From an uncultured Microthrixaceae bacterium (lineage in GTDB: Bacteria > Actinomycetota > Acidimicrobiia > Acidimicrobiales > DATDAH01): a DNA stretch of 64,000 nucleotides. Made by a program: the position numbers and the translations under genes. Below, piece by piece: positions 2,452 to 46,612 of the stretch; position 1 is the stretch's first letter, and each line of letters starts with the position of its first letter. The notes beneath the pieces were generated by a model. It was not told the DNA's origin. It saw only the letters and a list, made by a program, of their open reading frames with translations, and did no database searches. The stretch covers positions 492,506 to 556,505 of the forward strand of contig CAVRXU010000002.1 in the NCBI GenBank assembly GCA_963725155.1, read 5' to 3'.

Positions 2452-2546
2452 CCTTCCATGCGACCTTCTGTGTTGGGAGGTCCGCGACCGTCCGCGTCAC
2501 GTTAGACCCCGGGCGCGAGCGGCATGATGGGCCATGCGCGACCTTT

Positions 2547-10334: not shown

Positions 10335-10479
10335 GTTGCTCTCCCCTCGGACGCCGGCGCCCGTGACCGGTTGTGACGATCCGACCTGCCCGATGGTTCC
10401 CCGGCAGCGCGAGGATTTCCCAGCCAGGGCAGAGCGACAGACGGTCAGGGCGGCCGCTGCCGGAAGAGGCTGCGTCCGA

Positions 10480-17006: not shown

Positions 17007-18047
17007 CTACGAGGAGTTGAGCACGTAACGCGTGCCGACGACGCTCGGTGCGCAGCCGGTGGGACTGAAGGCATTCGCCAGTTCCGCGGCGGCTCGCCAG
17101 CCTGTGCAGTGAGCCGGCGCGACGATCTGTGGGGCGACGAGGTCGGACAGGTCTCGCACGGTCGGTTCGATGCGGTCCTCGACGGCGGTACCCGCGAGGT
17201 GGTAGCCGCCGAGAAGGAGGTCCACCGGTTGATCCGGGAGCAGCCGCCGGGCCTCGAGGCCGACGTTGACGACTCCGGCGTGAGAACAGGCGGTGAGCAC
17301 GGTCGTGCCGCGGCCGTGGACGCTGGCGGCCAGGAATCGCTCGTCGTGGATCTCCGGATCGAGGGTCACCTGCTCTCCTTGCCAGGTGTGGTGTCCCGCG
17401 AGGCCGGTCTCATAGCTGGTCTGGCGCGGGATGTCGCCGCTGGCGAGAAAGAGATCGGCGACGGCGTGGAGCTCGGCGTGAGTGGTGACGCGGGCGCCGG
17501 CCGCCTCGATCGCGGCGATGGTGGGCTCCGGCGGCAGCATCGCGAAGATCTCGAAGGGGGTGAGGATCCCGCGCTGGTCCGGCCGGTCGGGGTGGACATC
17601 GACGACGAGCGGCGGGTGGCCGGCCTTCCCGCGCGCTTCGGCGATGGCGGTGACGACGTCGGTGATGCCGCCGGAGTGGTCCCAGTGCCAGTGCGACAGG
17701 AACAGCACGTCGATGCCGGACAGGTCGACCGCCAATCGCTCGGCGTTGGCGAGCCAGACGTCGCCGTAGGGGCCGACATCGAACAACACCGTGGCCTTGC
17801 GATCTCCCTGTCGCGCGGTGGCGAGGGCGGAGAACCCGTGACAGGCGACGCAGAGGTGGTCGAAGGCCACAACGCAGTCGTGGCCTTCGTGCCGGCCGCT
17901 GGGCGGGATGCTTCCGAGCAGGTGGGCCATCTCCGGCAGCTGCGGGATGCCCGGGCCGATGCTCGAGAGCGTGTCGGTTGCGTTGTCGACGACGACCGTG
18001 ATGGTGAGCTCGTCGAGCTCGGGCACAGCCGTCGGGTCGGGTGCCAT
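17007..18047 (-). CDS. MBL-fold metallo-hydrolase
   Basis: Start trimmed to MAPDPTAVPELDELTITVVVDN (ATG 18047). HxHxDH motif LSHWHWDHSGG. Confidence 0.85.
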   Translation of the reverse strand: MAPDPTAVPELDELTITVVVDNATDTLSSIGPGIPQLPEMAHLLGSIPPSGRHEGHDCVVAFDHLCVACHGFSALATARQGDRKATVLFDVGPYGDVWLANAERLAVDLSGIDVLFLSHWHWDHSGGITDVVTAIAEARGKAGHPPLVVDVHPDRPDQRGILTPFEIFAMLPPEPTIAAIEAAGARVTTHAELHAVADLFLASGDIPRQTSYETGLAGHHTWQGEQVTLDPEIHDERFLAASVHGRGTTVLTACSHAGVVNVGLEARRLLPDQPVDLLLGGYHLAGTAVEDRIEPTVRDLSDLVAPQIVAPAHCTGWRAAAELANAFSPTGCAPSVVGTRYVLNSS

Positions 18048-18151
18048 CGCCCCATGGTCCCAGAGCCGTCGGCCGCCGGCCACTGGTCGGCCGTGTCCGG
18101 AAAGACCACCGCGATACGGCGACCGCGGACAGTGGCGAGTATGGTTACTCC

Positions 18152-19753
18152 ATGGGACATTCCGGGGCGGCGGGGAGACGAGCACGATCGTGGCTCGGGA
18201 TGCTGGTCGGGATCGGCGTGTGGTCGATCCTCCTCACCCCGGCACTGATCGGGGGTGACATCGCGCAGGCGTTGACCAGCACGACAGAGCCTCGGCTCAG
18301 CCTCGATCATCTGATTCGGACCACGCCGTTCGTGGGATCGGCGACCTCGGTGCGGGACGACGAGGGCAGCGCGTACGTCGCGGGGGACGACGCGCTCTGG
18401 CTGGCCTCCGACAACGACGACGCCCTGTTCGAGGTCGACCGCACGACGGGGGCGCTGCGCAGGGAGGTCGCACAATCGGCGTTCGTCAACGCGCCTCGCT
18501 TCGGCGTCGGTGGCGCCGCCGGCCAGGCCCGCACCGAGGACCTCGAGGCGCTCGCGTACGACGCCAACGCCGACGTCCTCTACGCCTTCTCCGGGAGCGC
18601 GGGCGCCACGCCGACGGCCTTCCGCCTGACCCGGGACGCCAACCAACAGTTCCAGGTCGATTCCTGGCAGCCGCTGCCGTCCGAGTGGACCGGCGCGGGG
18701 TGGCGCCTGGCCGACGGTCTCACCTATGTGGCGAACGGACCGACCATCCGGACCTACGACTTCCCCGCGAACACGTTCGGCGCCGCGTTCTCGATCCCGG
18801 GACTGGGCGGGATCTTCGGCCTCGACTTCGACGACGTCACTGGTGACCTGCTGGCCGTCAACACCTCCGAACGCCTCTGGCGGGCGTCGATGACCACCAG
18901 GACCCTCCGGGAGGGGTGGGAGGGCATCAGCCTCACCGGTCTGGGACTCCGCGACAGCCGTGCGGTCGAGGTCATCGGTGAACAGGTGCTCGTCAGCGAC
19001 GGGGACGACTCACGGGCTTCGTCGGATCCGATGAACCATGCGGTCTTCGTGCTCGACGTCACGGCCGCCGCACCTGACACCACCGACCCCACCATCACGA
19101 TGGTGACGCCGCCCGCGGGGGCGGTCTACGCCCGGAACCGGGTCGTGAACGCTGACTTCTCCTGCACGGACGAGCCGGGGGGCTCCGGGATCGCCTCCTG
19201 TGTGGGCACGGTGGCCGACGGACACGCCATCGACACCACCACCCTGGGCCAGCACTCCTTCGGGGTGACCGCCACCGATGTCGCCGGCAACACCCGGGTC
19301 CTGAACCGCCCCTACACCGTCACCGCGGCCCGGCCCGACGGGAGGATCCGCCGCGGCAGCGGCACTCTGGTCGGCAACAACATCGAGAACACCACGGGCA
19401 GCGGCCAGACCCGCAGCGGCTCCGCCGGCCGAGGCCACAGCGTCACCTATTACGCCTCCATCCAGAACGACGCCGCCTTCGCCGAGAGGCTCCGGCTCCA
19501 CGGGCAGGGATCGACGGCCCAGTTCACCATCGGCTACCGCAACCCGGCGGGGACCAACATCACCGATCAGGTCACGGCCGGCACCTACACCACCCCCAAC
19601 CTGGTCACCGGGGGCACCTTCCAGGTCAGGATCACCGTCACCGTCCGGAACACCGCACCCCCCCACGCCGTGGTGGTCCGCACCCTCACGTCCATCTCCA
19701 CCAGCGACACCACCCGCCGCGACACCGTCGAGTTCGTCACCAGCCGGGCCTGA
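18152..19753 (+). CDS. secreted protein, paralog 1: conserved about 300-aa N-domain + Ig/HYR-like domain + C-terminal beta domain
   Basis: Start MGHSGAAGRRARSWLGMLVGIGVWSILL (ATG 18152). The N-domain is highly similar to that of 24853-27042 (GSAYVAGDDALW.ASDNDDALFE.DRTTG...TEDLEALAYDANADV.YAFSGS...). Confidence 0.8.
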   Translation: MGHSGAAGRRARSWLGMLVGIGVWSILLTPALIGGDIAQALTSTTEPRLSLDHLIRTTPFVGSATSVRDDEGSAYVAGDDALWLASDNDDALFEVDRTTGALRREVAQSAFVNAPRFGVGGAAGQARTEDLEALAYDANADVLYAFSGSAGATPTAFRLTRDANQQFQVDSWQPLPSEWTGAGWRLADGLTYVANGPTIRTYDFPANTFGAAFSIPGLGGIFGLDFDDVTGDLLAVNTSERLWRASMTTRTLREGWEGISLTGLGLRDSRAVEVIGEQVLVSDGDDSRASSDPMNHAVFVLDVTAAAPDTTDPTITMVTPPAGAVYARNRVVNADFSCTDEPGGSGIASCVGTVADGHAIDTTTLGQHSFGVTATDVAGNTRVLNRPYTVTAARPDGRIRRGSGTLVGNNIENTTGSGQTRSGSAGRGHSVTYYASIQNDAAFAERLRLHGQGSTAQFTIGYRNPAGTNITDQVTAGTYTTPNLVTGGTFQVRITVTVRNTAPPHAVVVRTLTSISTSDTTRRDTVEFVTSRA

Positions 19754-22932: not shown

Positions 22933-23844
22933 TCAACGGTCGGCCACGGCCGCCGCGAGGTCGGTCGGGATCTCGTAACCGTGACGCTGCATCTCCTCGC
23001 GGAGCTCCGGAACGGCGCGAGCCAGATCTTGGGGATCGAGACGCCGCCATTTCTCTGTCCGGTCCGCTTTGACGGTCTCCTTCGCGGCGTTCACCATGTC
23101 GGTGGTCATCTGCAGGTCGCAGTGCGCACAGATGCGTTCCAAGTCGGCGACCGGGTCGTGGACGAAGTCCTCGTAGCGCAGTCGAAGGACTTCGCCTTCG
23201 CCGAACGAGGCGAGGTCCTGCTCGGCCTTCTTCGAGCCTTCCGCCCACTGTCGGGCGATCACGGTGAACATGTCCTCCACCGCGAGGTCGTCCTGTAGGG
23301 CTCGGTAGCGCGGTCCCCATGCCGGCAGATACGTGCTCCTCCGGACTCGCTTGGCGAACTGTTGGCGCCCGTACTTGGCGGCCTGGTGGTGCAACTGGCT
23401 GATCGGCGTCTCTCGCAGTCGCCTGATCGCACCGGTCGTGGTGACGGGACGCTGCCACTTCAACTCGACGGAGCTGATGAAGGAGAAGGGGTCCCGGACC
23501 ATGTACATGAACGTGGCTTCCGGGAAGATCGCCCTGACGTAGGGGATCCTCAGGATGTTGTGCGGTGACTTCTCCAGGACGATGGAGCTCCCGTGGTCCT
23601 CCTGGTACTCGAGGAACCGACCCCGGATGTACCGCTTCACCTTGTCGGTTGCGTCCCGTTCGTCGAACTCGTCGTGGTGTCGGCCCGGATCGGCGTACAG
23701 CCAGAGGGAGTTCGGCTCATACCAGCCGACGACATCGGGATGCACGGAGACGATGTTCTGGACGATCGTCGTTCCGGACCGGAAGTTGCCGAGGAGGATG
23801 ATGGGCGGCCGCAGCTCGGCGGCCCGTCCCTTGCCGCGGCTCAC
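22933..23844 (-). CDS. sulfotransferase family protein (PAPS-dependent type)
   Basis: 5'-PSB loop ILLGNFRSGTTIV. 3'-PB region YMVRDPFSF. ATGA overlap with the upstream epimerase gene (23841-23844). Confidence 0.8.
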   Translation of the reverse strand: MSRGKGRAAELRPPIILLGNFRSGTTIVQNIVSVHPDVVGWYEPNSLWLYADPGRHHDEFDERDATDKVKRYIRGRFLEYQEDHGSSIVLEKSPHNILRIPYVRAIFPEATFMYMVRDPFSFISSVELKWQRPVTTTGAIRRLRETPISQLHHQAAKYGRQQFAKRVRRSTYLPAWGPRYRALQDDLAVEDMFTVIARQWAEGSKKAEQDLASFGEGEVLRLRYEDFVHDPVADLERICAHCDLQMTTDMVNAAKETVKADRTEKWRRLDPQDLARAVPELREEMQRHGYEIPTDLAAAVADR

Positions 23845-24836
23845 CGCAGCACCTGTCGGCGGTCGCGGTGCCAGGCCAGCTGGGCCTCGATCCCCTCGCG
23901 GAGCCCCACCCGTGGCTGCCAGCCGAGGAGCGTGTGGGCCCGTTCGGTCGCCCCGCCGTTGCGCTTGGCGTCGCCCGCCTCAGGGGGATAGTCCTCGACG
24001 ATGACCTGGGTCCCGGCGAGGTCGCCCACCGTTGCGATGAGGTCGTTGAGCGTGATCTCCCCACCGCCGGCGATGTTGACGATCGTCCCGGGCGGGACGT
24101 CGGCCTCCGAGGCCAGGATGTTCGCGGCGACGATGTCGGCGACGTAGGTGAACTCCCGGACCTGGGTCCCGTCGCCGAACCGAGGGAAGCTCGCTCCGGT
24201 GAGCACGGCTTCGCAGAGCCGGTGGATCGACATGTCCGGTCGCTGCCGCGGACCGTAGACGGTGAAGTAGCGCAAGGCCACGGTCGGCACACCCCAGTTC
24301 TCGGCGTACAGCGCAGTCAGGTGCTCCCCGGCGAGCTTGGTCACGCCGTAGGGGCTGTACGGACGGGGCACGTCCGTCTCCACCGTCGGGTAGCGGTCCT
24401 GGTTGCCGTAGACCGACGAGGACGAGGCGTAGACGACACGGCGCACCTCGGCTTCCTTCGCGGCCTCGAGCAGCCGCTGAGTCGCGAGCACGTTGTGGCT
24501 GGCGTACTCGGGGAAGCCGTCGGACCAGGACAGACGAACGCCCGGTTGCCCGGCCTGGTGGAACACGGTGTCACACCCGTCGAACAACGTGGCGAGATCC
24601 ACCTCGCGGAGGTCGGCCTCGACGAGGGTGAAGCGCTCGTCCGCGAGCGCGCCCTCGAGGTTCGAGCGTTTCACCTCTTCCGTGTAGTACGAGGTGAAGC
24701 AGTCGATCCCGACGACGGTGTCGCCCCGAGCGAGCAGCGTGTCGACGAGGTGCGATCCCACGAACCCTGCGGCCCCCGTGACGACGTGGCGGGTCGCCGC
24801 GGGTTCCGGCCGGTTGGACCTGTGTGACTCGGTCAT
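23841..24836 (-). CDS. NAD-dependent nucleotide-sugar epimerase/dehydratase (UDP-glucuronate decarboxylase / 4-epimerase type)
   Basis: VTGAAGFVGSHLVDTLL Rossmann motif, SSSSVYG, YSPYGVTKLAGE (YxxxK). Confidence 0.85.
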   Translation of the reverse strand: MTESHRSNRPEPAATRHVVTGAAGFVGSHLVDTLLARGDTVVGIDCFTSYYTEEVKRSNLEGALADERFTLVEADLREVDLATLFDGCDTVFHQAGQPGVRLSWSDGFPEYASHNVLATQRLLEAAKEAEVRRVVYASSSSVYGNQDRYPTVETDVPRPYSPYGVTKLAGEHLTALYAENWGVPTVALRYFTVYGPRQRPDMSIHRLCEAVLTGASFPRFGDGTQVREFTYVADIVAANILASEADVPPGTIVNIAGGGEITLNDLIATVGDLAGTQVIVEDYPPEAGDAKRNGGATERAHTLLGWQPRVGLREGIEAQLAWHRDRRQVLR

Positions 24837-24852: not shown

Positions 24853-27042
24853 CTATGCGACCACGACGACTTGGGGCGGGTGCGTCCCCTGCGTGGTCTC
24901 GAACGCCCCGGTGTTCGTCGACGTCGTCGTGGCTTCGAACGAGTAGGTGCCGTTCCCGGTGATGGCGCTGGTCAGGTCGACTTCGACCCATGTGCCCACC
25001 GTGATGGCGCCGACAGAGGCGACCGGGCTGCCGGAGATGTCGGGCTTGTTGCCCCAGATCACCGTGTTCTCGGTCCAGTTGTTCGACACCAGGTACCAGT
25101 CGCCGCCCCTGGAGCTCGCGTCCTCGACGAAGAGCCGGAGCCTCACCGAGGTCGGTGGGCCGCTGAGCCCGTTCAGGGTGAACCTGACGAGCGACCGGTA
25201 CTCCGAGGGGTCGGGGAACTTGATCTTCATGGTCGGGGCCGTCGCGTAGTTCTTCGTCGGGCTGGAGGTGTTCACGTAGGTGTCAGCGTCGAGGGGCACG
25301 GTGAACTCGGTCGGTGCCTGGTTGACGGTGATGGTCTGCGAGCTGGACGTGGACCCTTGGGCGTTGGTGGCGGTCAGGGTTGCGGTGAAGGTCCGCGGCC
25401 AGGGCCCGGTGGTGGGGTTGTAGGTGTGGGAGGGCGATGTCGCCGTCGATGTGCCGCCGTCGCCGAAGTCCCAGGCGTAGCTGGTGGGCCCGCCGGTGCT
25501 CGTGTTGGTGAAGTTGACGGTGAGCGGCGCGGTGCCGGTGGTCGGCGTCGCGTTGAAACTCGCCGTCGGTGCCGATGGCTGGTTGACGGTGATGGTCTGC
25601 GAGCTGGACGTGGACCCTTGGGCGTTGGTGGCGGTCAGGGTTGCGGTGAAGGTCCGCGGCCAGGGCCCGGTGGTGGGGTTGTAGGTGTGGGAGGGCGATG
25701 TCGCCGTCGATGTGCCGCCGTCGCCGAAGTCCCAGGCGTAGCTGGTGGGCCCGCCGGTGCTCGTGTTGGTGAAGTTGACGGTGAGCGGCGCGGTGCCGGT
25801 GGTCGGCGTCGCGTTGAAACTCGCCGTCGGTGCCGATGGCTGGTTGACGGTGATGGTCTGCGAGCTGGACGTGGACCCTTGGGCGTTGGTGGCGGTCAGG
25901 GTTGCGGTGAAGGTCCGCGGCCAGGGCCCGGTGGTGGGGTTGTAGGTGTGGGAGGGCGACTGCGCGGTCGATGTGCCGCCGTCGCCGAAGTCCCAGGCGT
26001 AGCTGGTGGGCCCACCGGTGCTCGTGTCGGTGAAGTTGACGGTGAGCGGGGCTGTGCCGCTGGTCGGCGTGGCGGTGAAGCTCGCCGTCGGGGCTGTCCC
26101 ACCGGGTCCGGTGACGTCCATCACGAACACGGCGTGGGACATGGGATCCGAAGCCGGCCGCGCGCTGGTGTCGGCGCCGTCGGTGACGAGCACCTGTTCG
26201 CCGATGACCTCGACCCCACGGGTGTCGAGGAGGCCGAAGCCGGTGAGGCTGATGCCGTTCCATCCGGTCAGGAGAGTCCGGGTGGTCATCGACGCCCGGT
26301 AGAGCTTTTCACTGCTGTTGACGGCCAGGAGATCACCGGTGACGTCGTCGAAGTCGAGGCCGTAGATCTTGGAGAGCCCGGAGATGGAGAACGAGGGCCC
26401 GAACGTGTTCGTGACGAAGTCATAGGTGCGGATGGTCGAGCCGTTCGCGACGTAGGTGAGGCCGTCGGCCAGGCGCCACCCCGCGCCGGTCCACTCCGAC
26501 GGCAGCGGCTGCCAGGACTGGACCTGGAACTGGTGGTTGGCGTCCCGGGTCAGGCGGAAGGCGGTCGGGGTCGCGCTCGTGCTCCCGGAGAAGGCGTAGA
26601 TGACGTCGGCGTTCGCGTCGTAGGCGAGCGCCTCGAGGTCTTCGGTGCGCGACTGACCGGCGGCACCGCCCACGCCGAAGCGGGGCGCATTGGTGAAGGC
26701 CGCCTGCGCGACCTTTCGGCGCTGAAACCCCGTCGTGCGGTCGAACTCGAACAGGGCGTCGTCGTTGTCGGACGCCATCCAGAGCGCGTCATCCCCCGCG
26801 ACGTACGCACTGCCCTCGTTGTCCTGCAGCCGGGTCGTCGATCCCAGGGGGGGCGAGGTCCGAATCAGGTGGTTGAGGGCGAGGTGAGGCTGCGTCGTGG
26901 TGATCAGCGCGTGCGCGTTGCCGATCCCGACCACCGTGAAGGCGACCGCCGCAGTCAGCGCAAGCGCAATGAGTCGTCGGCCACTATCGGGCGAGCGTCG
27001 CGGTCGACCACTTCGGGGGATGTTGCGGGTCTCGTCAGCCAT
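24853..27042 (-). CDS. secreted protein, paralog 2: conserved N-domain + 3 PKD repeats + DNRLRE-like C-terminal domain
   Basis: Signal/TM RRLIALALTAAVAFTVVGIGNAHA. N-domain paralogous to 18152-19753. Three PKD units (FNATPTTGTAPLTVNFTNTSTGGPTSYAWDFGDGGTS). C-terminus DADTYVNTSSPTKNYA...SLVRFTL...VRLRLFV...WTENTVIWGNKP. Confidence 0.85.
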   Translation of the reverse strand: MADETRNIPRSGRPRRSPDSGRRLIALALTAAVAFTVVGIGNAHALITTTQPHLALNHLIRTSPPLGSTTRLQDNEGSAYVAGDDALWMASDNDDALFEFDRTTGFQRRKVAQAAFTNAPRFGVGGAAGQSRTEDLEALAYDANADVIYAFSGSTSATPTAFRLTRDANHQFQVQSWQPLPSEWTGAGWRLADGLTYVANGSTIRTYDFVTNTFGPSFSISGLSKIYGLDFDDVTGDLLAVNSSEKLYRASMTTRTLLTGWNGISLTGFGLLDTRGVEVIGEQVLVTDGADTSARPASDPMSHAVFVMDVTGPGGTAPTASFTATPTSGTAPLTVNFTDTSTGGPTSYAWDFGDGGTSTAQSPSHTYNPTTGPWPRTFTATLTATNAQGSTSSSQTITVNQPSAPTASFNATPTTGTAPLTVNFTNTSTGGPTSYAWDFGDGGTSTATSPSHTYNPTTGPWPRTFTATLTATNAQGSTSSSQTITVNQPSAPTASFNATPTTGTAPLTVNFTNTSTGGPTSYAWDFGDGGTSTATSPSHTYNPTTGPWPRTFTATLTATNAQGSTSSSQTITVNQAPTEFTVPLDADTYVNTSSPTKNYATAPTMKIKFPDPSEYRSLVRFTLNGLSGPPTSVRLRLFVEDASSRGGDWYLVSNNWTENTVIWGNKPDISGSPVASVGAITVGTWVEVDLTSAITGNGTYSFEATTTSTNTGAFETTQGTHPPQVVVVA
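25318..26100 (-). repeat. tandem repeat, 3 x 261 bp (one PKD domain per unit)
   Basis: Units 25318-25578 and 25579-25839 read identical base for base. Unit 25840-26100 differs at scattered positions toward its end. Confidence 0.95.
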
Positions 27043-27083
27043 TTTGGCGGTCCTTCCATTTCATGAGAGCTGTTGTGAGCGGC

Positions 27084-31213: not shown

Positions 31214-32055
31214 TGCGTTCTCCTCGTCATCTGGGGGTGGTGCGGCGCTCCGCCGCGATCAGGCTCGGGTCGCCGGTCGAGCCCGAGATCCGATCGTGGC
31301 GTTGCCAACTCCGACAACACGCCCTTCAGATCGGTTGCGTCACCCGTGTAGTCGTCCGTGCGGCCGTGGAGCAGGTGCAATGATGCCACCAACGCCGCGG
31401 GATCGATGGGGCGGTCGCCGTTGACGATGCGTCGCACGGTCGTCGCCACGCGGTCACCGAACTGCGCCGTCCACGAGGCGAGCATCGCCTCGACCAACTT
31501 GGCCTGTCGCTCGAGCTCGCGACGGCGACCCGCACCGGCGGCCTCCACCCGGCTCTCCCGCCCGGGTCGGGCGGCGAGACGCAGGTCGGCGAGCCCGAGG
31601 TCGGATTCGACCACGACGATCAGGTCCGGCGCCAGCAGCGCGACCCCGGGATCGGCGATGTCGATGACCGACGCCGCGTCGCCGGCGAACCCGAGCGAGC
31701 AGAGCTCCTGCACCAGGCCCTGGTCGAAGACGTGGAAGCCGGGTGTGGTGCTCGCCCGTCGCATCGCGGCCCGGAGCACGAGCCAGTTGAGCGACCGGAT
31801 GGCGACATCACGCCGCGTCGGCTGGTGGGAGCGCCTGACGGCCTGAACCGTCCGCGCCGAAGCCTGGGGGTGGCCGGCGATCTCCGCCGCGGCCCGCCGG
31901 AGCTTGCGGCGCAGTCGATCCCCGCGCGATCGGCGCGGGGAGACCTCCTCGAGCGGCAGCGAGGCCGCATGGCCCCGGCGGCGCAGCTCGGCGACGAGCG
32001 CATGAGCGACGGTCGACTTGCCCGAGCCGGGCACGCCGCAGAGTTCGATGATCAC
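31204..32055 (-). CDS. stand-alone P-loop NTPase / nucleotide-kinase-like protein
   Basis: GTG start overlaps the upstream stop (GTGA at 32052-32055). Walker A CGVPGSGKSTVAHAL, then HVFDQG and PDLIVVVESD (kinase-fold-like order). The upstream part of the 436-aa track ORF is read-through. Confidence 0.65.
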   Translation of the reverse strand: MIIELCGVPGSGKSTVAHALVAELRRRGHAASLPLEEVSPRRSRGDRLRRKLRRAAAEIAGHPQASARTVQAVRRSHQPTRRDVAIRSLNWLVLRAAMRRASTTPGFHVFDQGLVQELCSLGFAGDAASVIDIADPGVALLAPDLIVVVESDLGLADLRLAARPGRESRVEAAGAGRRRELERQAKLVEAMLASWTAQFGDRVATTVRRIVNGDRPIDPAALVASLHLLHGRTDDYTGDATDLKGVLSELATPRSDLGLDRRPEPDRGGAPHHPQMTRRTQWS

Positions 32056-34010
32056 GTCGGGCCGTGGGTGGGTTCGAGGAGTCGTTCGGCCATGGCGGCC
32101 CGAGCCTCGACGAAGACGGTGTCGAAGGGCTGGTTGGCGTCCATCTCCACCACACCGAGCTCGGCCCGCTCGAACAGCAGGCCCTCGACCACCTGCTTGC
32201 GGGTGACGAGTGACTGGGGGTCGTGCCCGGGGCGGCGACGAGCCGCAGTCTCCTCGTCGACGTTCAGGCGGATGACGAGGTCGGGCTGGAACGCGTGGGC
32301 CTGCTCGTACGGCTTCCGCTCCCACCTCGCCAGCCCCTGCCGCCACCGACTGTCCGACGACAACCACGCATCGAGCAGCGGCCCGTCGATGATGCCCGGC
32401 ACCTGGGCCTGTGGGTAGCGGTCGCACAGCACGAGAGCGCCATTGCGCGCCGCTCGACGAGCCTGACGGAGCTTCGACCGCTTCTCCTGGGCGAGGGCCA
32501 GCGCCCACACCCACCGTGAGGTCTCCAGGGCGCGCGGAGCCCGCTCCTGGACGGCTTTCCGACGGGCTTCCGTGCCCTTGGCGCCGAACACCGCTCGCTT
32601 GACGTACGCCAGCGGCCGCCGTAGCAGGGACGACGGACCGTCGCCGCTGCCGAGGTAGAGGTGAACCACCTCCTGGTCTTCAGCGAAGCTCTCGGCGAGG
32701 GCACGGCTCAGCGTCGACTTCCCGGAGCCGTCGGACCCGACCACCGCCACGACGCGGCCCGTGACCCGGCGCTCGCTCTGCTTCACCGCGAGGACCGAGT
32801 TCACGAGATCCCGGTAGCCCTCCCGCACCCGAGTCGGACTCCACGACGACAAGTCGATCGTGGGCCCGCTTCGTTCGACGGGCCACCGAAGGTACGGCAG
32901 CGCCGCACGGGCGGCCCCGACGACGTCGCCCACGTCGACGACCTTTCCCGGGGCGCCGAGCTCGAGCAGCTCGTCGGCACCGTCGACATCGGTGGCGATG
33001 AACGGGGTTCCCGCGGCCGCGGCCTGGACCAGCACCTGCGGCAGGCCCTCTGCCCGACTCATGAGCACGACGACATCAGACGCGACGAACAGGTCGCGGG
33101 GATCGTCGACGTGGCCCAGCAACTGGCAGTCACCGTCGAGGCCGATCTGGCGGACCAGGGAACGGAGCCGGGCCTCCTCTGGCCCGGCACCGGCCACCAC
33201 CAAGAAGGGCGAAGGGCCGGCGCTGAGCTGGATCATCTGCTGCAGCAGGATCGGGAGGTCGAGGACGCGCTTGCGCTCCTCCAGGCTCCCGACATACAGG
33301 ATCCACGGTCGATCTTCGGGCAGCGCGTGGGTGTGGGCCATGGCCCGTCGTATCTCGGGCCGGTCCGCCTCGGCGGCCGGCAGCCGGGCGGCGGAACGGA
33401 TGACGGTCAACTTCTCCGCCGGGACCCCGATGTGGGCGAATCGGCTGGCGAGGTCGGTGCCCACGACCGCGTAGGCAGCCGTCCATCGCGAAAGGGCCCA
33501 TTCGAGGGTGCGAAAGAGTCGGCTCTCGTAGGTGCTGTACCCGGGGCCGAAGTCCGCCATCGACAACGAGTGGACGACGGGAGGGGCCCCCGCGATGCTC
33601 GCCGCCAGCCGACCGAGGACACCGGACTTGGACTGGTGGGTGACCACGAGCGCATAGTCAGAGTCTTTGATGGTCTGGCGCAGGCGCGAGAGGGCGATGG
33701 CGTCTTGCCACGGACTCACGGGCCGCCGCAGGCTCGGTTCCAGGGTCACCCGGGCGCCGGCGAGCTGATGGCTGGCGAGGTCGATGTCCGAGTCACGACC
33801 GATGATCACGTGGTGCTGGTGCTCCGGGAGGGCGGCCACCATGTCGCGCAGGCGCCGCTCGGAGCCGCCCTGGTCGAACCGGGTGCACACGTGGAGGATC
33901 CGCCTGGGCAGGCGAGCGACCCCGTTGGGGCCCGCCGTCACGGAAGCGGTGAAGTTGTGTTCTGCTGTCACGGGAGCGGCGCCGTTGCGTTCGGGTCTGA
34001 CCCCGTTCAC
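32052..34010 (-). CDS. fusion: GT4-family glycosyltransferase + C-terminal thymidylate-kinase-like P-loop domain
   Basis: GTG start in a GTGA overlap with the sugar transferase stop (34007-34010). GT4 features RILHVCTRFDQGGSER, ILYVGSLEERKRV, MSRAEGLPQVLVQAAAAGTPFIATDVDG. Then VVAVVGSDGSGKSTLSRAL (about 32717-32750), LVLCDRYP, PDLVIRLNVDEE. Confidence 0.8.
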   Translation of the reverse strand: MNGVRPERNGAAPVTAEHNFTASVTAGPNGVARLPRRILHVCTRFDQGGSERRLRDMVAALPEHQHHVIIGRDSDIDLASHQLAGARVTLEPSLRRPVSPWQDAIALSRLRQTIKDSDYALVVTHQSKSGVLGRLAASIAGAPPVVHSLSMADFGPGYSTYESRLFRTLEWALSRWTAAYAVVGTDLASRFAHIGVPAEKLTVIRSAARLPAAEADRPEIRRAMAHTHALPEDRPWILYVGSLEERKRVLDLPILLQQMIQLSAGPSPFLVVAGAGPEEARLRSLVRQIGLDGDCQLLGHVDDPRDLFVASDVVVLMSRAEGLPQVLVQAAAAGTPFIATDVDGADELLELGAPGKVVDVGDVVGAARAALPYLRWPVERSGPTIDLSSWSPTRVREGYRDLVNSVLAVKQSERRVTGRVVAVVGSDGSGKSTLSRALAESFAEDQEVVHLYLGSGDGPSSLLRRPLAYVKRAVFGAKGTEARRKAVQERAPRALETSRWVWALALAQEKRSKLRQARRAARNGALVLCDRYPQAQVPGIIDGPLLDAWLSSDSRWRQGLARWERKPYEQAHAFQPDLVIRLNVDEETAARRRPGHDPQSLVTRKQVVEGLLFERAELGVVEMDANQPFDTVFVEARAAMAERLLEPTHGPT

Positions 34011-34798
34011 CGTGATTCGCCGGGCTCGGGCCGCAGGACGCACCGGACGGTTCGGCGCAGGATGTCGACGTCCCCGACGAGCGAGCGGTTGAGCGCATAC
34101 TCGACGTCGAGGCGGACGCGTTCCTCGTAGGGGATCGCGTTGCGGCCGTTCACCTGCCAGGCGCCGGTCATGCCCGGTCGCACCTGGAGCACGACTTGGG
34201 CACAACTGCCGTATCGCCCGAGTTCCTCGGGGACGACGGGCCGCGGGCCCACCAGGCTCATGTCACCCCGCAGGACGTTGATCAGCTGGGGCAGCTCGTC
34301 CAGGCTCGTCCGGCGAAGAACGCGGCCGACGCGGGTGATCCGCGGGTCGGACTGGAGCTTGAAGTCCTTCTCGAACGCGGCGCGCGCCTCCGGGTCCTCG
34401 AGGAGGATGACCGCGAGCCGCTCCTCGGCGTCGGTCCGCATCGTCCTGAACTTCATGCACTCGAATGGCTCGCCGTGCCTGCCGATGCGGGTCTGGCGGA
34501 AGATCGCCGGCCCTCGGGACGTGAGGGCCACCGCGGCCGCCACCACCAACATCAAGGGTGCGGTCAGGATGGTGATCAGACTCGCGACGACGAGGTCGAA
34601 CGTGCGCTGGGCCGCGTCGGCTCGAAGGCACCGTCCCCGGGCCCGCTCGACCATCCGGGCCTCGAAGGCCAACCTCCCGGACTCGACCTGCGGGCGGGCC
34701 AGCGCGCGCAACAGCGCAGCCGGTGTGACCGCCGAACCCGGACCCGCGGCCGGCTGGACGGTGGCCGACGTGTCGGCCAACTCAGTGGTAACCGCCAT
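34007..34798 (-). CDS. polyprenyl-phosphate sugar phosphotransferase (bacterial sugar transferase, WbaP/EpsL-type initiating enzyme)
   Basis: Start trimmed to MAVTTELADTS (ATG 34798, SD GAGGGAGAGGGG). TM FDLVVASLITILTAPLMLVVAAAVAL. Motifs KFRTM and SLDELPQLINVLRGDMSLVGPRP. Confidence 0.9.
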   Translation of the reverse strand: MAVTTELADTSATVQPAAGPGSAVTPAALLRALARPQVESGRLAFEARMVERARGRCLRADAAQRTFDLVVASLITILTAPLMLVVAAAVALTSRGPAIFRQTRIGRHGEPFECMKFRTMRTDAEERLAVILLEDPEARAAFEKDFKLQSDPRITRVGRVLRRTSLDELPQLINVLRGDMSLVGPRPVVPEELGRYGSCAQVVLQVRPGMTGAWQVNGRNAIPYEERVRLDVEYALNRSLVGDVDILRRTVRCVLRPEPGESR

Positions 34799-35004
34799 CG
34801 GAAGTGCCCCTCTCCCTCGGAACCCCGTCGGTTCCAGTTGTTCGCCGCCTCGACAAGGACCACGCTTCGGGTCCAGCAGCACCACTCTGCGTGGTGCACT
34901 CTGGAGCATAGAACCTTGTTTCCCTGTGCGCAAAGAGTGGCAGTCGGGGGTGACCAGGCGCCATAGGGAGACGTCTGAGTAGCTGGTAGGGAAAATGCTG
35001 AGAC
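34799..35004 (-). promoter_or_regulatory. conserved promoter/5' leader, copy B (candidate cis-regulatory RNA of the glycan operon)
   Basis: Reverse complement aligns with 10480-10684. Shared blocks: TCAGCATTTTCCCTA, ACTCAG..GTCT.CCTATGGC, GCGCACAG.GAA..CAAGG.TCTAT.CTCC, hairpin CACCAC-GCAGA-GTGGTG, CTGGACCC...TGGTCCTT, GGAACCGACGGGGTTCC, then the SD. Confidence 0.6.
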
Positions 35005-35039
35005 ACGTCTCAGCATAATGCCGACATGTAGTCAGCATT
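34995..35039. promoter_or_regulatory. array of two adjacent palindromes built from ATGCTGA(G/C)AC-type half sites (candidate transcription factor operator)
   Basis: 34995-35016 ATGCTGAGAC-ac-GTCTCAGCAT (perfect 10+10). 35017-35039 AATGCCGAC-atgta-GTCAGCATT (one mismatch). Related half sites at 10483-10491 (GTCAGCATT), 35852-35858 and 35890-35896 (AATGCT.). Confidence 0.5.
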
Positions 35040-35093
35040 TGTCGATGGCGGCGAGCGGTGCGCAATGCGACCCTCGGTCCGGGTTCGGGCGAG

Positions 35094-35771
35094 TCAGTCG
35101 ATACCGATGACGGACACGATGCCGTGTCGGATCGCGTACTTGCAGAGGGCGACGTCGTTGTGGAGGTTCAGCTTCTTCATGATGTGCTCGCGATGCGTAC
35201 TCACCGTCTTGGGACTGATCGACAGCCGGGCTGCGATCTCTCCCGTGCCGAGGCTGTCCGCGATGAGCTCCAACACCTCGTACTCGCGGCCGGTGAGATG
35301 GGGCTCATCGGTGTGGTCCCCCCCTCGGTGGGCCACGTAGTCGCGGACCAGGTCGCCGGCTATGGCCGGGCTCAGGTACGTCTGGTTGGCGGCCACCGCG
35401 CGGATGGCCGTCAGCACCTCTTTGGTTTCGGCGCTCCAGAGCACATAGCCCGAGGCCCCCGCCTCGAGCAGATCCGACAGGACGCGCCGATCGCCGTGGT
35501 GGGAGAAGCAGAGCACGCTGGCATCCGGGTGCTCGGCGAGGATCCGGCGCGTCGCTTCGACACCGTTCGACTTGGACGTCGAGACGTCCATGAGCACGAC
35601 CCCCGGAGGGTTCTCCCGGGCGGCATCGACGGCGGCGTCGCCGTCCGGGGCCATACCGACGACCGTGATGTCCGGTTCCCGCTCTACCACGGTCTGTAGG
35701 CCCTCTCGCAACAGAGGGTGGTCATCGACCACGAGGACCCGGGTGGGCATCGCCGTCATCCGGTCACCCAC
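35094..35771 (-). CDS. NarL/LuxR-family response regulator (no adjacent histidine kinase)
   Basis: Receiver RVLVVDDHPLLREGL...VVLMDV. C-terminal HTH LTGREYEVLELIADSLGTGEIAARLSISPKTVSTHREHIMKKL. Start may be M1, M5 or M8 of the ORF. Confidence 0.9.
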   Translation of the reverse strand: MGDRMTAMPTRVLVVDDHPLLREGLQTVVEREPDITVVGMAPDGDAAVDAARENPPGVVLMDVSTSKSNGVEATRRILAEHPDASVLCFSHHGDRRVLSDLLEAGASGYVLWSAETKEVLTAIRAVAANQTYLSPAIAGDLVRDYVAHRGGDHTDEPHLTGREYEVLELIADSLGTGEIAARLSISPKTVSTHREHIMKKLNLHNDVALCKYAIRHGIVSVIGID

Positions 35772-42082: not shown

Positions 42083-44335
42083 CTACCCGTCGAGAGCGGT
42101 GAGGGTGCGCGCCCCCTCGCGCCCCTCGACCCGGTAGAAGGCGAGGTCGTTGGCGCCGGCCCGGAGGAAGTCGGGAACGAGCATCGCCTCCAACTGGTGG
42201 GGCACCCCGTTCTCCGGCCACGTGGTCACGACAGCCGCGACCCGGCCGTTCAGGGCGATGGCGACGGTGAGCTGGTCGCCGTCCGGCAGGCCCTCGACCC
42301 GACCGACGAGGTGGGTGCGGAGCACGCCGCTGGACGGATCGACGTCGGCCAAGACGTCGGGATCGTCGAGGACGACGGACAGGGGAGACGAGGATCTCGC
42401 GGTCAGGTCCTCGACGCGAGCGCCGACCAGCTCGCCCGCGTCGTCGATGTCGTAGACCCGATAGTCGGGGTTGTCCGTCCGGAACAGGGAGTCGACGGTC
42501 CGGTCGAGGGCTTCGGCGAACACCTCGGCCCCGTCGTAGGGCGTTGCCGGGCCCACCGTGGTCGGTCCGACCATCCCGCCGTCGAACGAGACGAGGTGGA
42601 AGCGCTTCTGGTCGTCCGGTCGACGCTCGGTGGACACGGCGATCCCGTCGACCGGCCATGGGATGTCGATGCCCAGCAGGTTGGCGAGGGTGGGCATCAC
42701 GTCGATGGTCTCGACGTTGTCGTCGTTGACCGCGCCCGGCTCGATGCCCGGGCCACGGAGGAGCATCGGCACGGGGAGCATGTCGGCGAACGCATCCTCG
42801 GTCATGTTCTCGGGTGTTGTCGGTCGGGGGGTGGCTCCGGGCTGGAGCCCCACCCCGTGGTCGGCGACGACCACGACGAGGGTGTCCTCGACGAGCCCGG
42901 TCTCCTGTAGTCGATCGAGGACGTCGCCGACCACTCGGTCGACGTACATGGCCTGGAGGACCAGGCGTTGGCGATCGACGTCGGCACCGGCCTGCTCGCT
43001 GCTCCTCGTGCCTGAGATCTCACTGATGCCCCCTGCCAGCGTGGCATCCGGGTCGTAGGTCTGGCCCGAGGGGAGGAAGTGGTACGGGGCATGGGGCAGG
43101 AGCAGGTGCAGGTAGTGGAGGGTCGGGTCCTCGCCCGGCTCGATCGAGTCGACGAGCTGGCCGACGGCATCGAGCTCGAGCACGGGGATCCCGGCCAGGC
43201 CGGCGGGGGCGAAGACCGGTGCCTCGCCCGCGGCCGCGTCGTCGACGGCGTCGTCGGCGCTCGGGCCCACCGTCGGCCGGGTCGTGGGCGGCGGCGTGGT
43301 CGTGGTCACGACACGGGCCTCCTGCTGCAGGGCGTCGACGGAGCTCACGGCCTCGGGGTCGGGGGAGACGAGGGTCCGGTAGGTGCCGGCCGCGTCATCG
43401 AGGAGGGCCCAGAGCCCATCGGGGGGCGACGGTGGCGGGGGTGGAGCGGGCTCGGCCGCGTCCTGCGGCGCGGGGTGGTCGACCAGCTGTCCGTCGCAGA
43501 GGTTGGGCGGGCACAGCCGGGCGGCCGTCTCGATCACGTCGAGGTCGAACTGGTTGGCCAGGAGGGTGAACAGGTTCTCCGGGTAGTCGCTGGCGACCGC
43601 CGTCCGGCTGCCGTCGGGGTAGCGGCCGGTGAGGATCGCCGGCACGGCGTAGGACGTGAACGTGGCGACGGTGGTGGCGTTCCGGTACCAGGTCCCCTCG
43701 TCGGCCAGGGCGGCCAGGTTGGGGTAGAGCTCCCGATCGATGGCCCCCTCCCGGTCCATCGCCATCTCGAGAGGCCATTCGTCGAGCTGCAGGAACACGA
43801 CCGAACGGGGCTGACGAGCCGGCGCGACGTCGGCGGCGGCGACCGCCTGGCCGTCCAGGAGGTCCGAGGTGGGGCTGGCCGTGAGGAAGACCCCGACGAA
43901 CAAGACCGGGGCCAGACCGAGGTAGAGCAGGAGGAGCCGGGCCGTCGGCAGCCCGCGGTAGGCGATGACCGCGAGGGCCGCCAGCCCGAGCGCGAGGAGG
44001 ACGGCGACCGCCCCGGCCGTCAGGTCGAGGTGCTTCACCAGCTGGAGGGCGAGGAGGGCCGACAGCCCGCCGAGGAAGGCGAGGTGCACGAGGGCCCGGG
44101 CCGACGGCACCACGATGCCGACCAGCACCTCGATCGTGAGCAGGACCAGCGTGGGCCCGAGGGCGACCACAAAGGCGAAGGCGATGATGGCGAAGCGGTC
44201 GCTGTCCCGGAAGAGGAAGACGTCGGGCGCGTTCCCGAACAGGTCGAGCAGCGGTTGGGTGATGGCCAGGCCGGTGAGGGCCAGGAGCTCCGCGGCCGAG
44301 CGCAACGTCGGCCGTGCCTCGGGACGTCGGCTCAC
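42083..44335 (-). CDS. membrane-anchored sulfatase/LtaS-like (alkaline-phosphatase superfamily) hydrolase or transferase
   Basis: GTG start in a GTGA overlap with the upstream stop (44332-44335). Five or so N-terminal TM segments. Extracytoplasmic domain with FLQLDEWP, HLLLPHAPY, VVVADHGVG. Confidence 0.75.
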   Translation of the reverse strand: MSRRPEARPTLRSAAELLALTGLAITQPLLDLFGNAPDVFLFRDSDRFAIIAFAFVVALGPTLVLLTIEVLVGIVVPSARALVHLAFLGGLSALLALQLVKHLDLTAGAVAVLLALGLAALAVIAYRGLPTARLLLLYLGLAPVLFVGVFLTASPTSDLLDGQAVAAADVAPARQPRSVVFLQLDEWPLEMAMDREGAIDRELYPNLAALADEGTWYRNATTVATFTSYAVPAILTGRYPDGSRTAVASDYPENLFTLLANQFDLDVIETAARLCPPNLCDGQLVDHPAPQDAAEPAPPPPPSPPDGLWALLDDAAGTYRTLVSPDPEAVSSVDALQQEARVVTTTTPPPTTRPTVGPSADDAVDDAAAGEAPVFAPAGLAGIPVLELDAVGQLVDSIEPGEDPTLHYLHLLLPHAPYHFLPSGQTYDPDATLAGGISEISGTRSSEQAGADVDRQRLVLQAMYVDRVVGDVLDRLQETGLVEDTLVVVVADHGVGLQPGATPRPTTPENMTEDAFADMLPVPMLLRGPGIEPGAVNDDNVETIDVMPTLANLLGIDIPWPVDGIAVSTERRPDDQKRFHLVSFDGGMVGPTTVGPATPYDGAEVFAEALDRTVDSLFRTDNPDYRVYDIDDAGELVGARVEDLTARSSSPLSVVLDDPDVLADVDPSSGVLRTHLVGRVEGLPDGDQLTVAIALNGRVAAVVTTWPENGVPHQLEAMLVPDFLRAGANDLAFYRVEGREGARTLTALDG

Positions 44336-45363
44336 GGCCAGATGATCCTGTCCCGCATCGACGAGCGCTCGAGCATCCCGTGGGTCTCCTCGCCGTCCCA
44401 GCGGTAGCGGACGGTGCACTGGGACAGCACCGGGAACTGCGGGTAGCCCTCCAGGCCGAGCTGATAGGTCGCGACGACGGTCTCGGCCTCGATGCGGGTG
44501 ATGCCGCCGGACGTCTCCAGCTCGAGGGACACATCCTCGCCGTTGCCGACCAGGTGCTGCAGCCACGGCGCCTTCCGGACCTTGGCCGGGATCAGCTCGC
44601 CGTCGCCTGCGAAGAGGTAACCCTCGTTGTAGGACTCGCTGCCGTCGGGCCGGGGCGGGTAGGCGATGTAGCCGAAGGCCCGCCCGCTCGGGAAGAGGGC
44701 CGACTGCCAGGCGTGGCCCCAGAACTCGGTGATGTCGCGGACGCCCTGGCGGCGGATGCGCAGTCCGCTGCCGGTGAACGGGTGCTCCTCGCCCCGGACC
44801 CGCACCGCGCCCGTTGCCCGGAACAGCTGCTCGAACCGCGGACCGCCCATGAGCTTGCCCTCGACGGAGGTGGCCAGCATCTCGGCCGCCTCGGGGAAGA
44901 GGGTGCCCTGGATCCAGGGTGGCACCGCCATCGTGGCCTCGACGTCGAACTCGAGGTCGACCATCGGGCCCTCGGTGTCCCCCGCGATCAGCGCCTCGGT
45001 CGAGGTCTCGACGGCCTGACCGCGGAACGTGGCCGTCCAGGTCGTGAACGGCTCGACCAGCCGGAACGCCAGCGGCCCGGTGCCGAGCACCGTGGGCCGC
45101 CCGTCCGGGCCCTGCGCCGGGTGGCTGGGGTAGGGGCCACGCAGCCGGTACACGCGGCCGTCGGCGAACCCGACGTTGACCTGGAGCTGGTGCTGGTCCC
45201 ACTCCTCAGCCAGGGCCTCCACGGCGAAGCGGGGCAGCTCGACCTCACCGCGGTCGTCGGCCACCCACATGTTGACGCCGTCCCGCATTCCCGGCTCGGC
45301 CGGGCGATCGGCGAAGACGAACTCCCGGTCGTCGTCGAGGCCACCGGTGAGGTCTGTGCTCAT
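44332..45363 (-). CDS. hypothetical protein (no recognisable motif)
   Basis: 343 aa. ATGA overlap with the sulfotransferase stop (45360-45363) and GTGA overlap with the downstream gene. Coding-like composition. Confidence 0.65.
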   Translation of the reverse strand: MSTDLTGGLDDDREFVFADRPAEPGMRDGVNMWVADDRGEVELPRFAVEALAEEWDQHQLQVNVGFADGRVYRLRGPYPSHPAQGPDGRPTVLGTGPLAFRLVEPFTTWTATFRGQAVETSTEALIAGDTEGPMVDLEFDVEATMAVPPWIQGTLFPEAAEMLATSVEGKLMGGPRFEQLFRATGAVRVRGEEHPFTGSGLRIRRQGVRDITEFWGHAWQSALFPSGRAFGYIAYPPRPDGSESYNEGYLFAGDGELIPAKVRKAPWLQHLVGNGEDVSLELETSGGITRIEAETVVATYQLGLEGYPQFPVLSQCTVRYRWDGEETHGMLERSSMRDRIIWP

Positions 45364-46520
45364 GGCTCGTGCTCCTGGTGTGCGGTCCATTGGGCCCGGC
45401 GGGCGTTGTAGGTCGAGAAGGCCGAGCGGACCTCGTCGAGGTCGAGGCCGAAGGCCGCCGGGTCGGGGTGGACGTTGGGCTCACGGTCCGCGGCGTGGCC
45501 CTGCCACCAGCGGGCCATGCCCGTCTCGAACGCCTGGCTCACCGGCTCGTCGAGCCAGGCGTAGAGGGCGCGCACCTCGGCGATCGGGTCCGCCTGCACG
45601 GCGCGGAAGTCGAGGTCGTAGAAGCGGTTGTCGGCGCCTGAGTCGCGGAAGGCGATGACCCGCTCCATCGCCGTGGACCAGTGCTCGAGGTTGAGGGCCC
45701 CGAGGTAAGCGGGGTCGAGGACATCGTTGAACTGGCTGCCGACTTCGGCGTACAGGTCGGCGACCGACACCAGGACCTCGGTCGGATCCCGGTGGGTCAT
45801 GACGAAGCGGGCGTCGGGGAAGGCGCGGTCGAGGTGGTCGAGGAAGAGGAGATGCGTCGGGCACTTCAGCCGCCACGGCTTCGCCGGATTTCCCCACTGG
45901 AGCAGCTTCAGCACCCGGCGCTCGTACTGGTAGGTCGACGTGAGGTCGGCATCCAGCAGCCAGCGGGAGTACGAGGGGATGTAGGCGAAGGCCTGGAAGT
46001 AGTGGGCCTTGAAGTCCAGGGCCATGAGGTCCTGGCACTCCTCGGGTCCGGTCGCCGTCGACGGCAGGAGGTCGGCCAGACGCGGCGCCAGCTTGTCCCG
46101 GTGGGCGTTCTCCGCCTCGGCCTGGGCGATCCGGGGATCCGGGCTCTCTACCGTCGAGGGCGGCGGGCAGGGCCGCTTCGCCTCCCAGGCGCGCAGCGAC
46201 CGGGCGTCGGGATCCTCGGCCAGCAGGAATGAGAGCGCGGTCGAGCCGGTGCGGGGCAACCCGAGCCCGATCAGCGGGGCCTCGATCGGCTCTTCGTCGA
46301 TCTCGGGGTGCCGGCGGTACCACTCCTCGATCTGCAGGCGGTGGGTCAGCAGGTTCACGATCAGATAGGGCACGGCCGCCTGACCCACGGCGTTCATCGA
46401 GGCCTCGTCCCGCAACGAGCGGACCAGCCGTTCGAGCCCTTCGAGGAACGAGTCGTCGCCGAAGTCATCGAGCCCGGTCGCACCCCGCGCCGCGGCCAGG
46501 AGCTCCTCGTGTGCGGTCAT
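45360..46520 (-). CDS. sulfotransferase family protein (second one in the window)
   Basis: 5'-PSB loop LGLPRTGSTALSFLL. 3'-PB region FVMTHRDPTEVLVS. Confidence 0.8.
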   Translation of the reverse strand: MTAHEELLAAARGATGLDDFGDDSFLEGLERLVRSLRDEASMNAVGQAAVPYLIVNLLTHRLQIEEWYRRHPEIDEEPIEAPLIGLGLPRTGSTALSFLLAEDPDARSLRAWEAKRPCPPPSTVESPDPRIAQAEAENAHRDKLAPRLADLLPSTATGPEECQDLMALDFKAHYFQAFAYIPSYSRWLLDADLTSTYQYERRVLKLLQWGNPAKPWRLKCPTHLLFLDHLDRAFPDARFVMTHRDPTEVLVSVADLYAEVGSQFNDVLDPAYLGALNLEHWSTAMERVIAFRDSGADNRFYDLDFRAVQADPIAEVRALYAWLDEPVSQAFETGMARWWQGHAADREPNVHPDPAAFGLDLDEVRSAFSTYNARRAQWTAHQEHEP

Positions 46521-46612
46521 CCGCCGCCCCCTGTCGTCCGTCCCACTGTGGAGATTGGTGGCCGCACCATGACACGAACGGCCTGGGGCGGACCGTTGAC
46601 CCGCTCATTTTG

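Follow-up and report, generated by a model that had tools for sequence, protein, structure and literature searches.

Exopolysaccharide operons are common targets of cyclic di-GMP (c-di-GMP), and polysaccharide operons typically carry long conserved leaders with antitermination signals. Other described elements to which such a 5' region can be compared are regulon-type operators, for example NarL/GerE-family sites, and 5' hairpins of the ompA type. The c-di-GMP-I aptamer GEMM (RF01051; Vc2 in Vibrio cholerae) is built from two adjacent hairpins with an almost invariant AAA joint; P1 ends in a GNRA tetraloop, and P2 frequently contains a receptor (PMC1950547). Here we analysed a window of 64,000 nucleotides (nt) from an uncultured Microthrixaceae bacterium (assembly GCA_963725155.1, contig CAVRXU010000002.1, positions 492,506 to 556,505), in which a leader occurs twice, once before a priming sugar transferase gene (copy B) and once before the gene of a secreted beta-propeller/CBM_4_9 protein (copy A). 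Searches with its proteins likewise placed the window among uncultured Acidimicrobiales/Microthrixaceae. We know of no work on gene regulation in this lineage. The reading we lean towards, at slightly better than even probability, is that the leader belongs to a lineage-specific, paralogous module of promoter or operator, 5' untranslated region (5'UTR) and translation start, and is not an aptamer.

The two copies lie in inverted repeats (10477-10784 and 34699-35007) that a repeat search returned as 79-88% identical, far above chance. The similarity begins at box 1, passes the Shine-Dalgarno sequence and runs on to about codon 33 of both genes, and what was duplicated is therefore a promoter/5'UTR/translation-start module. 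In both copies the order from 5' to 3' is box 1, box 2, stem 1, stem 2, stem 3, Shine-Dalgarno sequence and ATG (Table 1), and the leaders are 78% identical with several indels. The shared N-terminus reads MAVTTE.AD.SATVQPAAGPG...PAALLRAL, with 7 of 12 codon differences synonymous, and its coding sequence contains the palindrome GGCCGAC-NN-GTCGGCC. In this 16-nt palindrome (10707-10722 and 34763-34778), copy A (GGCCGACGTGTCGGCC) is the exact reverse complement of copy B (GGCCGACACGTCGGCC), and the inverted loop exchanges Val for Thr between them. Searches with box 1, box 2 and stem 3 (up to 3 mismatches) found only two copies in the window, and exact box 2 sites in it likewise number two. The copies face inward across a cluster of ~24 kb, each heading one convergent arm; each arm thus begins with this control region, and the two are presumably switched together. 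Recombination between the inward-facing repeats would invert the cluster and swap its upstream halves.

For comparison across species, we used nine distinct leaders from five lineages: winA and winB (copies A and B of the window), L088_A, L086_B (protein 94% identical), U91_A (L085), L089_A, U91_B (L005, to which L001 and L002 are identical), L092_B and L095_B (protein 82% identical). P0003 and L096 were left out because their contigs are too short upstream. U91_A and U91_B come from one metagenome-assembled genome (GCA_036525535.1), so both leader copies are available in two genomes, that of the window and U91. A pattern scan of Joint Genome Institute (JGI) metagenomes yielded three true loci and three chance matches.

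The direction of the duplication was read from the N-termini and the junctions. Among the best 120 A-protein homologs listed, nearly all with a complete N-terminus open with a plain signal peptide (e.g. MRIFKK or MRIFKKAA), and the MAVTTE extension is found only in the window and in P0122 (U91_A). An MA.TT N-terminus is common to the closer B-type orthologs (at least ~67% identity; P0001-P0012, with exceptions such as P0005 and P0007). At the U91_A junction (MAVTTESAESAARSGSARPRARIFRKAA) the former start persists as an internal ARIFRK without a start codon, and therefore the captured ATG is the one used. The junction in the window, between PAALLRAL and VAAILAVCS, lies deeper than that of U91_A, and the module stays in frame in two species with different junctions. 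The A-type gene in L094 has no long leader, and that in L093 has only a box-2-like stretch in common with the B leader of the same genome (L006). On these comparisons the module was ancestral to the priming sugar transferase gene and was evidently copied onto the secreted beta-propeller/CBM gene. Within the window the two leaders resemble each other more closely than either resembles its U91 ortholog (65-68%), a sign either that the inverted copies have undergone gene conversion or that the module was captured a second time. The A gene itself (10685-13477 against L085:2543-5320) is 95% identical to its U91 ortholog in protein and 91% at four-fold sites, while its leader is only 68% identical; the high four-fold identity could mean that synonymous sites are very strongly constrained or that the gene was recently exchanged.

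Conservation along the leader is confined to a few blocks. In an eight-sequence alignment, invariant columns made up 92% of box 2, 74% of the first codons, 69% of stem 3 with the Shine-Dalgarno sequence and 53% of box 1, compared with 24-29% of the middle, which holds stems 1 and 2 and a block resembling the Vc2 aptamer. Box 2 (GTCTSCCTATGGC) is the most conserved block, with 12 of its 13 columns invariant in nine sequences from five lineages, and the sequence just upstream of box 1 is unalignable (25-53% identity). The leaders of the window and U91 also differ by indels, and their identity set against that of four-fold sites in six neighbouring genes (72-81%) indicates that the leader as a whole drifts about neutrally and that only a few blocks are held. 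L095 retains box 2, the stem 3 hairpin and the Shine-Dalgarno sequence, while the stretch with stems 1 and 2 is deleted. The middle of ~130 nt drifts at about the neutral rate and is deletable. The B-type leaders of L003, L009, L010 and L006 align only loosely with the others. L003, L009 and L010 have a ~360-nt leader of their own in common, loosely related to that of the window, and in L007 and L008, which are more distant Acidimicrobiia, short tandem repeats (e.g. GGCACGGTTGGGCC and GACACGTGTGAGACGAG) occupy the leader ~100-300 nt upstream of the sugar transferase.

The spacing of the two 5' boxes is exactly 29 nt in each of eight sequences, which represent four lineages. B-type loci have in addition a degenerate second box 1, which in U91_B reads TCAGACATTTCCTGA at the same offset as in copy B of the window, and a third TCAG 23 nt downstream. 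The palindrome that overlaps the second box 1 may be the terminator of the gene for a NarL/LuxR-type response regulator, which lies directly upstream of copy B. Every locus with a recognisable box 2 (L001, L092, L095 and, with a degenerate box 2, L006) has a response-regulator gene upstream of B, and so does L008, where box 2 was not seen. Such a gene is missing from the loci L003, L009 and L010, and their leaders have neither box 1 nor the 5' half of box 2. Short invariant boxes at a fixed spacing before two linked genes are what an operator or promoter module would present, and the leaders show them with the exception of the spacing in L095. Promoters of the extracytoplasmic function (ECF) type (AAC..CGTC) and the sigma-54 type (TGGCAC-N5-TTGC), checked by eye, do not fit.

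In our best reading, the leader is a shared transcriptional control region followed by a long, mostly unconstrained 5'UTR. Boxes 1 and 2 would act at the level of DNA, as a promoter or as a binding site, and the adjacent NarL-type response regulator would be the obvious candidate to bind them. The stem 3 hairpin and the ribosome-binding site would form an RNA-level feature serving translation initiation or mRNA stability. A copy of this module, with the Shine-Dalgarno sequence, ATG and 20-35 codons, would have been fused in frame ahead of the secreted beta-propeller/CBM gene. If so, the locus is a natural example of the capture of a regulatory module by one gene from another, including promoter, leader, ribosome-binding site and N-terminal codons, and the control of the polysaccharide pathway extends to a secreted carbohydrate-binding protein that presumably serves this pathway. 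The finding also provides concrete candidate sites, namely boxes 1 and 2, the response regulator and the hairpin that adjoins the Shine-Dalgarno sequence.

Regulon-type operators are comparable in several respects: the 5' boxes are invariant at a fixed spacing, a box is repeated at 23 nt in B loci, a response-regulator gene adjoins the boxes and tracks them, and the element precedes two functionally linked units. In contrast to such operators, the shared sequence arose by duplication and not by convergence, and it continues for ~170 nt more, through the 5'UTR and the Shine-Dalgarno sequence into ~33 codons. The boxes are not known to match any described NarL-family consensus, and the regulator is proposed as a candidate binder only. 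Stem 3 resembles the ompA-type 5' hairpins, being a G+C-rich hairpin of 5-8 base pairs (bp) located 2-7 nt upstream of the Shine-Dalgarno sequence and maintained through a compensatory change and a stem-extending insertion; unlike in those hairpins, its loop GACGG is unusually conserved.

Several observations weigh against this reading. L095 has box 2 without a box 1 at -29, and the spacing is accordingly not universal. No sigma-70-like promoter was detected in either copy, and boxes 1 and 2 could therefore sit inside the transcript and act as RNA. The putative link between regulator and boxes is drawn from synteny and a single loss event, and the alignment rests on five lineages only. On the RNA side, an alignment of seven sequences from box 1 to ATG was more stable than its column shuffles (z = -2.29, p about 0.013), so that some broader RNA structure is possible, and stem 1, an outer CRAGG/CCUYG helix and stem 3 each show at least one compensatory change.

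The last two points bear on the rival that survives best, a new structured RNA of narrow distribution that regulates in cis, be it a riboswitch or a leader bound by a protein or a small RNA (sRNA). In such an RNA, box 2, the outer helix enclosing stem 1, and stem 3 would fold into a functional unit and control access to the Shine-Dalgarno sequence. We consider it unlikely, though to be taken seriously. The earlier note on this DNA had proposed three hairpins, with a compensatory change in stem 1. Reading the window sequence confirmed all three in both copies, and the replacement of T:A by C:G in stem 1 is a genuine compensatory pair. Additional compensation is present in stem 3 (L095) and in the outer helix (A-U in winB, G-C in U91_B), U91_A contains G-U wobble replacements that are tolerated only at the RNA level, and the invariant box 2 and nearly invariant GACGG loop resemble RNA that contacts a ligand or protein. 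That the capture kept the whole leader with the translation start in frame in two species would also fit such an RNA. Beyond these features, the statistics are weak. The minimum free energy of the single copies showed no excess stability over dinucleotide shuffles (copy B, z = -0.51; copy A, z = +0.43). RNAalifold on eight sequences gave a positive covariation term (+1.61), with double changes in 5 of 49 pairs. When the three hairpins and the helix proposed between an upstream block and the Shine-Dalgarno sequence were counted over the eight sequences (24 pairs), 92% of cells were paired compared with 40-59% in slid-partner controls, a figure inflated because the structure was derived from the same sequences, and double changes occurred in 2 of the 24 pairs, both in stem 1. 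The column-shuffle z of the consensus folding energy fell to -1.23 for the core alignment of the hairpin region and to +0.11 with L095 added. Thus, what holds of the proposed structured leader is its cross-species conserved parts, the compensation in stem 1 and the maintenance of stem 3 in five lineages, while the structure as a whole is weakly supported by statistics, and of the two outcomes named beforehand as speaking against it, the lack of an Rfam match was observed and the lack of covariation support nearly so.

The individual helices fared differently. Stem 1 has wobble changes in U91_A, is re-registered in U91_B and weakened in L092, and is deleted in L095. Stem 2 shows nothing but one-sided changes and mismatches in the U91 lineages, is not maintained in U91_A and is absent from L095; it is unsupported as a conserved helix. 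All five close lineages form stem 3 in their minimum-energy folds. In L095 it reads GAUCC-GACGGG-GGAUC, in which an A-U pair of GGAACC/GGUUCC has become U-A, and in U91_B it reads GGAACCCC-GGC-GGGGUUCC, where a CC insertion pairs with two loop Gs to give 8 bp and a 3-nt loop. Across homologs its loop has 3, 5 or 6 nt and the gap to the Shine-Dalgarno sequence is 2 nt (GA) in the window; the varying loop length fits RNA pairing better than a protein operator of fixed spacing. Stem 3 is the best-supported RNA hairpin and the sole one with credible RNA-type support. The proposed pairing of the Shine-Dalgarno sequence with an upstream block (GTCTCCCT in copy B) did not hold, its centre pair being broken (G-G) in 5 of 8 sequences. 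RNAalifold suggested pairing of box 1 (UUUCCC) with the Shine-Dalgarno sequence, which is possible yet a generic pyrimidine-purine pairing. A covariance model of the hairpin region (CM R1) recovered the known copies at 88-137 bits; it found no match in the orthologous leaders L003, L006, L009 and L010 and no third copy in the window.

A conserved junction core and an expression platform, as expected of a riboswitch, were missing from the leader. Conserved unpaired sequence was seen only in box 2, far to the 5' side, and in the stem 3 loop, with no junction core, and neither mutually exclusive pairings forming an expression platform nor a terminator after the leader were found. An attenuator with an intrinsic terminator was rejected, since copy B has none and copy A has only a weak 5-bp stem that is the Shine-Dalgarno region itself; stem 3 is followed by GAGGGAGAGG. 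ANTAR targets consist of two adjacent hairpins with hexanucleotide loops that have A at position 1 and G at position 4, and this candidate was rejected as well, the leader loops being 5, 8 and 5 nt long and no ANTAR gene being present among the open reading frames (ORFs) of the window whose protein domains were scanned (~40). In contig_8468 of a Microthrixaceae relative, a GAF-ANTAR gene (L004:1170-1877; L093:5956-6663) has the A-type gene on one side and the genes of the response regulator and sugar transferase on the other. The leader as coding sequence was rejected too: the frame is open above both ATGs, yet the indels are not multiples of three, and the peptide of an upstream ORF starting at the box 2 ATG is not conserved. 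Taken together, an undescribed regulatory RNA is possible but doubtful. Its specific form, an RNA restricted to the sampled Acidimicrobiales/Microthrixaceae-like clade and made of box 2, a variable extended stem-loop and stem 3, which senses a metabolite, protein or sRNA, is a little less probable still; if true, the RNA was duplicated as a unit and both polysaccharide arms would respond translationally to the same signal.

A second rival holds that the leader is functionless beyond the Shine-Dalgarno sequence and start codon, a footprint of fairly recent duplication and gene conversion with incidental hairpins in DNA of 60-70% G+C. The greater identity of the paralogs in the window than of the orthologs is what conversion predicts, the cluster contains a second inverted repeat (785 nt) whose identity, 83%, is similar, the leader diverges at least as fast as four-fold sites, and its folding energies equal those of shuffles. 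This account would leave unexplained why box 2 is invariant and stem 3 with the Shine-Dalgarno sequence nearly so in five lineages and both paralogs, next to unalignable flanks, why even the distant L006/L093 genome has a box-2-like stretch upstream of both A and B, and why two species hold the module in frame across different junctions. We regard it as rather improbable.

A loading signal for processive antitermination, allowing read-through of the polysaccharide operon, is very unlikely. As with the JUMPStart/ops-RfaH, EAR, LoaP and UpxY leaders, a long conserved untranslated leader heads a long polysaccharide operon (~12 kb), where such signals are typical, and most copies have a conserved GGCGGCGAA stretch between stems 2 and 3. 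Unlike those leaders, it has no sequence or model match, although EAR is understood to be in Rfam, and no gene for a NusG paralog was found among the scanned ORFs. The GGCGG stretch is altered in copy A (GAGGCGATC) and in L095, and a need for read-through in the A arm would presuppose a single operon there.

The leader matches no known RNA family. Rfam cmscan with all 4227 families gave 0 matches in the whole window at the gathering threshold. With E up to 10, the regions 34700-35100 and 10380-10780 returned only chance-level matches to snoRNA, sRNA and DnaX families (sR49, DnaX, Atu_Ti1 and sR23) at 11-15 bits, and with E up to 5, four homologous loci returned only PyrR210. The likeness to the c-di-GMP-I riboswitch put forward in the earlier note was thus not borne out: RF01051 was absent from both copies even at E up to 10, and c-di-GMP-II (RF01786) was absent from the window, both copies and the four homologous loci. 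Reading the leader sequence showed no GNRA-capped P1, no AAA linker between hairpins and no receptor; none of the loops GCAGA, CGAAGCGT and GACGG is a GNRA tetraloop, and the sole AAA (in GGGAAAC), which copy A and the U91 copies do not have, does not link two hairpins. The Vc2-like blocks are present in the window with the letters reported, as is CAGAGAA in copy A for CAGGGAA in copy B. The block that reads CGCACAGGGAAAC in copy B is CGCACAGAGAAT in copy A, GGATTCACGA in U91_B, GACGACAAGTGAA in U91_A and AGGGTCGGCGCT in L095; neither the U91 nor the L095 homologs conserve it, and the region around it does not show the high conservation expected of an aptamer core. The leader is confined to one small clade and its look-alike block is unconserved, in contrast to GEMM, a widespread class with high conservation. 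Without an Rfam match and GEMM features, the leader therefore belongs to neither c-di-GMP class; c-di-GMP-I membership is refuted, and nothing supports a riboswitch. A divergent c-di-GMP-I or c-di-GMP-II riboswitch controlling the exopolysaccharide genes, for which a few copy B blocks in Vc2 order and the usual link of c-di-GMP with such operons had spoken, is next to excluded by these results, and the scanned ORFs of the window included no gene for a GGDEF, EAL or PilZ protein. The analysis adds no new riboswitch class and removes a tempting but wrong c-di-GMP annotation.

Table 1. Coordinates of the leader copies, their elements and the adjoining genes in the window (strand in brackets where given).
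Feature	Copy B	Copy A	Remarks
Leader	34799-35001 (-)	10483-10684 (+)	Copy B: box 1 to the base before the sugar transferase ATG; alignments; CM R1 131.5 bits at 34795-34919. Copy A: upstream of the beta-propeller/CBM_4_9 gene; alignments; CM R1 120.3 bits at 10568-10688
Box 1, TCAGCATTTTCCCTA	34987-35001 (-)	10483-10497	Identical in copy A and U91_A
Degenerate second box 1, TCGGCATTATGCTGA	35010-35024 (-)		23 nt upstream of box 1; B-type loci only
Palindrome GCTGAGAC-GT-GTCTCAGC	35014-34997 (-)		Overlaps second box 1; ATTTT follows
Box 2	GTCTCCCTATGGC, 34960-34972 (-)	GTCTGCCTATGGC, 10512-10524	
Block within box 2	GTCTCCCT, 34972-34960 (-)	GTCTGCCT, at 10512	
GCGCACAGGGAAAC stretch	about 34931-34918 (-)		
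Stem 1	CACCAC-GCAGA-GTGGTG, 34880-34896 (-)	CATCAC-GTAGA-GTGATG, 10593-10609	
Stem 2, GGACC-n8-GGTCC	34857-34874 (-)	10615-10632	
Stem 3, GGAACC-GACGG-GGTTCC	34819-34835 (-)	10649-10665	
Shine-Dalgarno (GGGAGAGGGG in copy B)	34816-34807 (-)	10668-10677	
Start ATG	34798-34796 (-)	10685-10687 (+)	Copy B: sugar transferase
Shared first ~33 codons, MAVTTELADTSATVQPAAGPG..PAALLRAL	34699-34798 (-)	10685-10784 (+)	Alignments, inverted-repeat search
Gene B, 263-aa Bac_transf priming sugar transferase	34007-34798 (-)		First gene of minus-strand arm
Gene A, 930-aa secreted beta-propeller/CBM_4_9 protein with captured N-terminal extension		10685-13477 (+)	First gene of plus-strand arm
NarL/LuxR-type response regulator (Response_reg + GerE)	35094-35771 (-)		Directly upstream of copy B, same strand

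After gene B, the minus-strand arm headed by the copy B leader continues with a GT4-kinase fusion, a P-loop (AAA) protein, an unknown membrane protein, Wzy, Wzx, a PKD/CBM96 protein, an epimerase and a sulfotransferase. The fusion (32052-34205) joins a GT4 glycosyltransferase to a C-terminal P-loop, kinase-like domain (717 aa); as its listed ORF shares ~200 nt with the end of the sugar transferase gene, its true start is probably internal. A neocarzinostatin-like gene adjoins gene A; it is oriented divergently in the window, whereas in L085, the U91 relative, it lies on the other side and is convergent. The second inverted repeat (18246-19030 and 26149-26933), close in identity to the leader repeat, sits in a 581-aa ORF (18008-19753, +) and in the PKD/CBM96 ORF (24853-27060, -), which contain paralogous domains, one per arm. 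Three tandem 261-nt repeats at 25312-26094, 94-99% identical, encode the PKD domains of the 735-aa PKD/CBM96 protein, and their near-identity suggests recent expansion or homogenisation. The window also encodes an adenylate/guanylate cyclase fused to a STAND NTPase (2289-5705), as well as two sulfotransferases and one sulfatase (among 22933-23979, 42083-45205 and 45360-46604), which suggest a sulfated polysaccharide.

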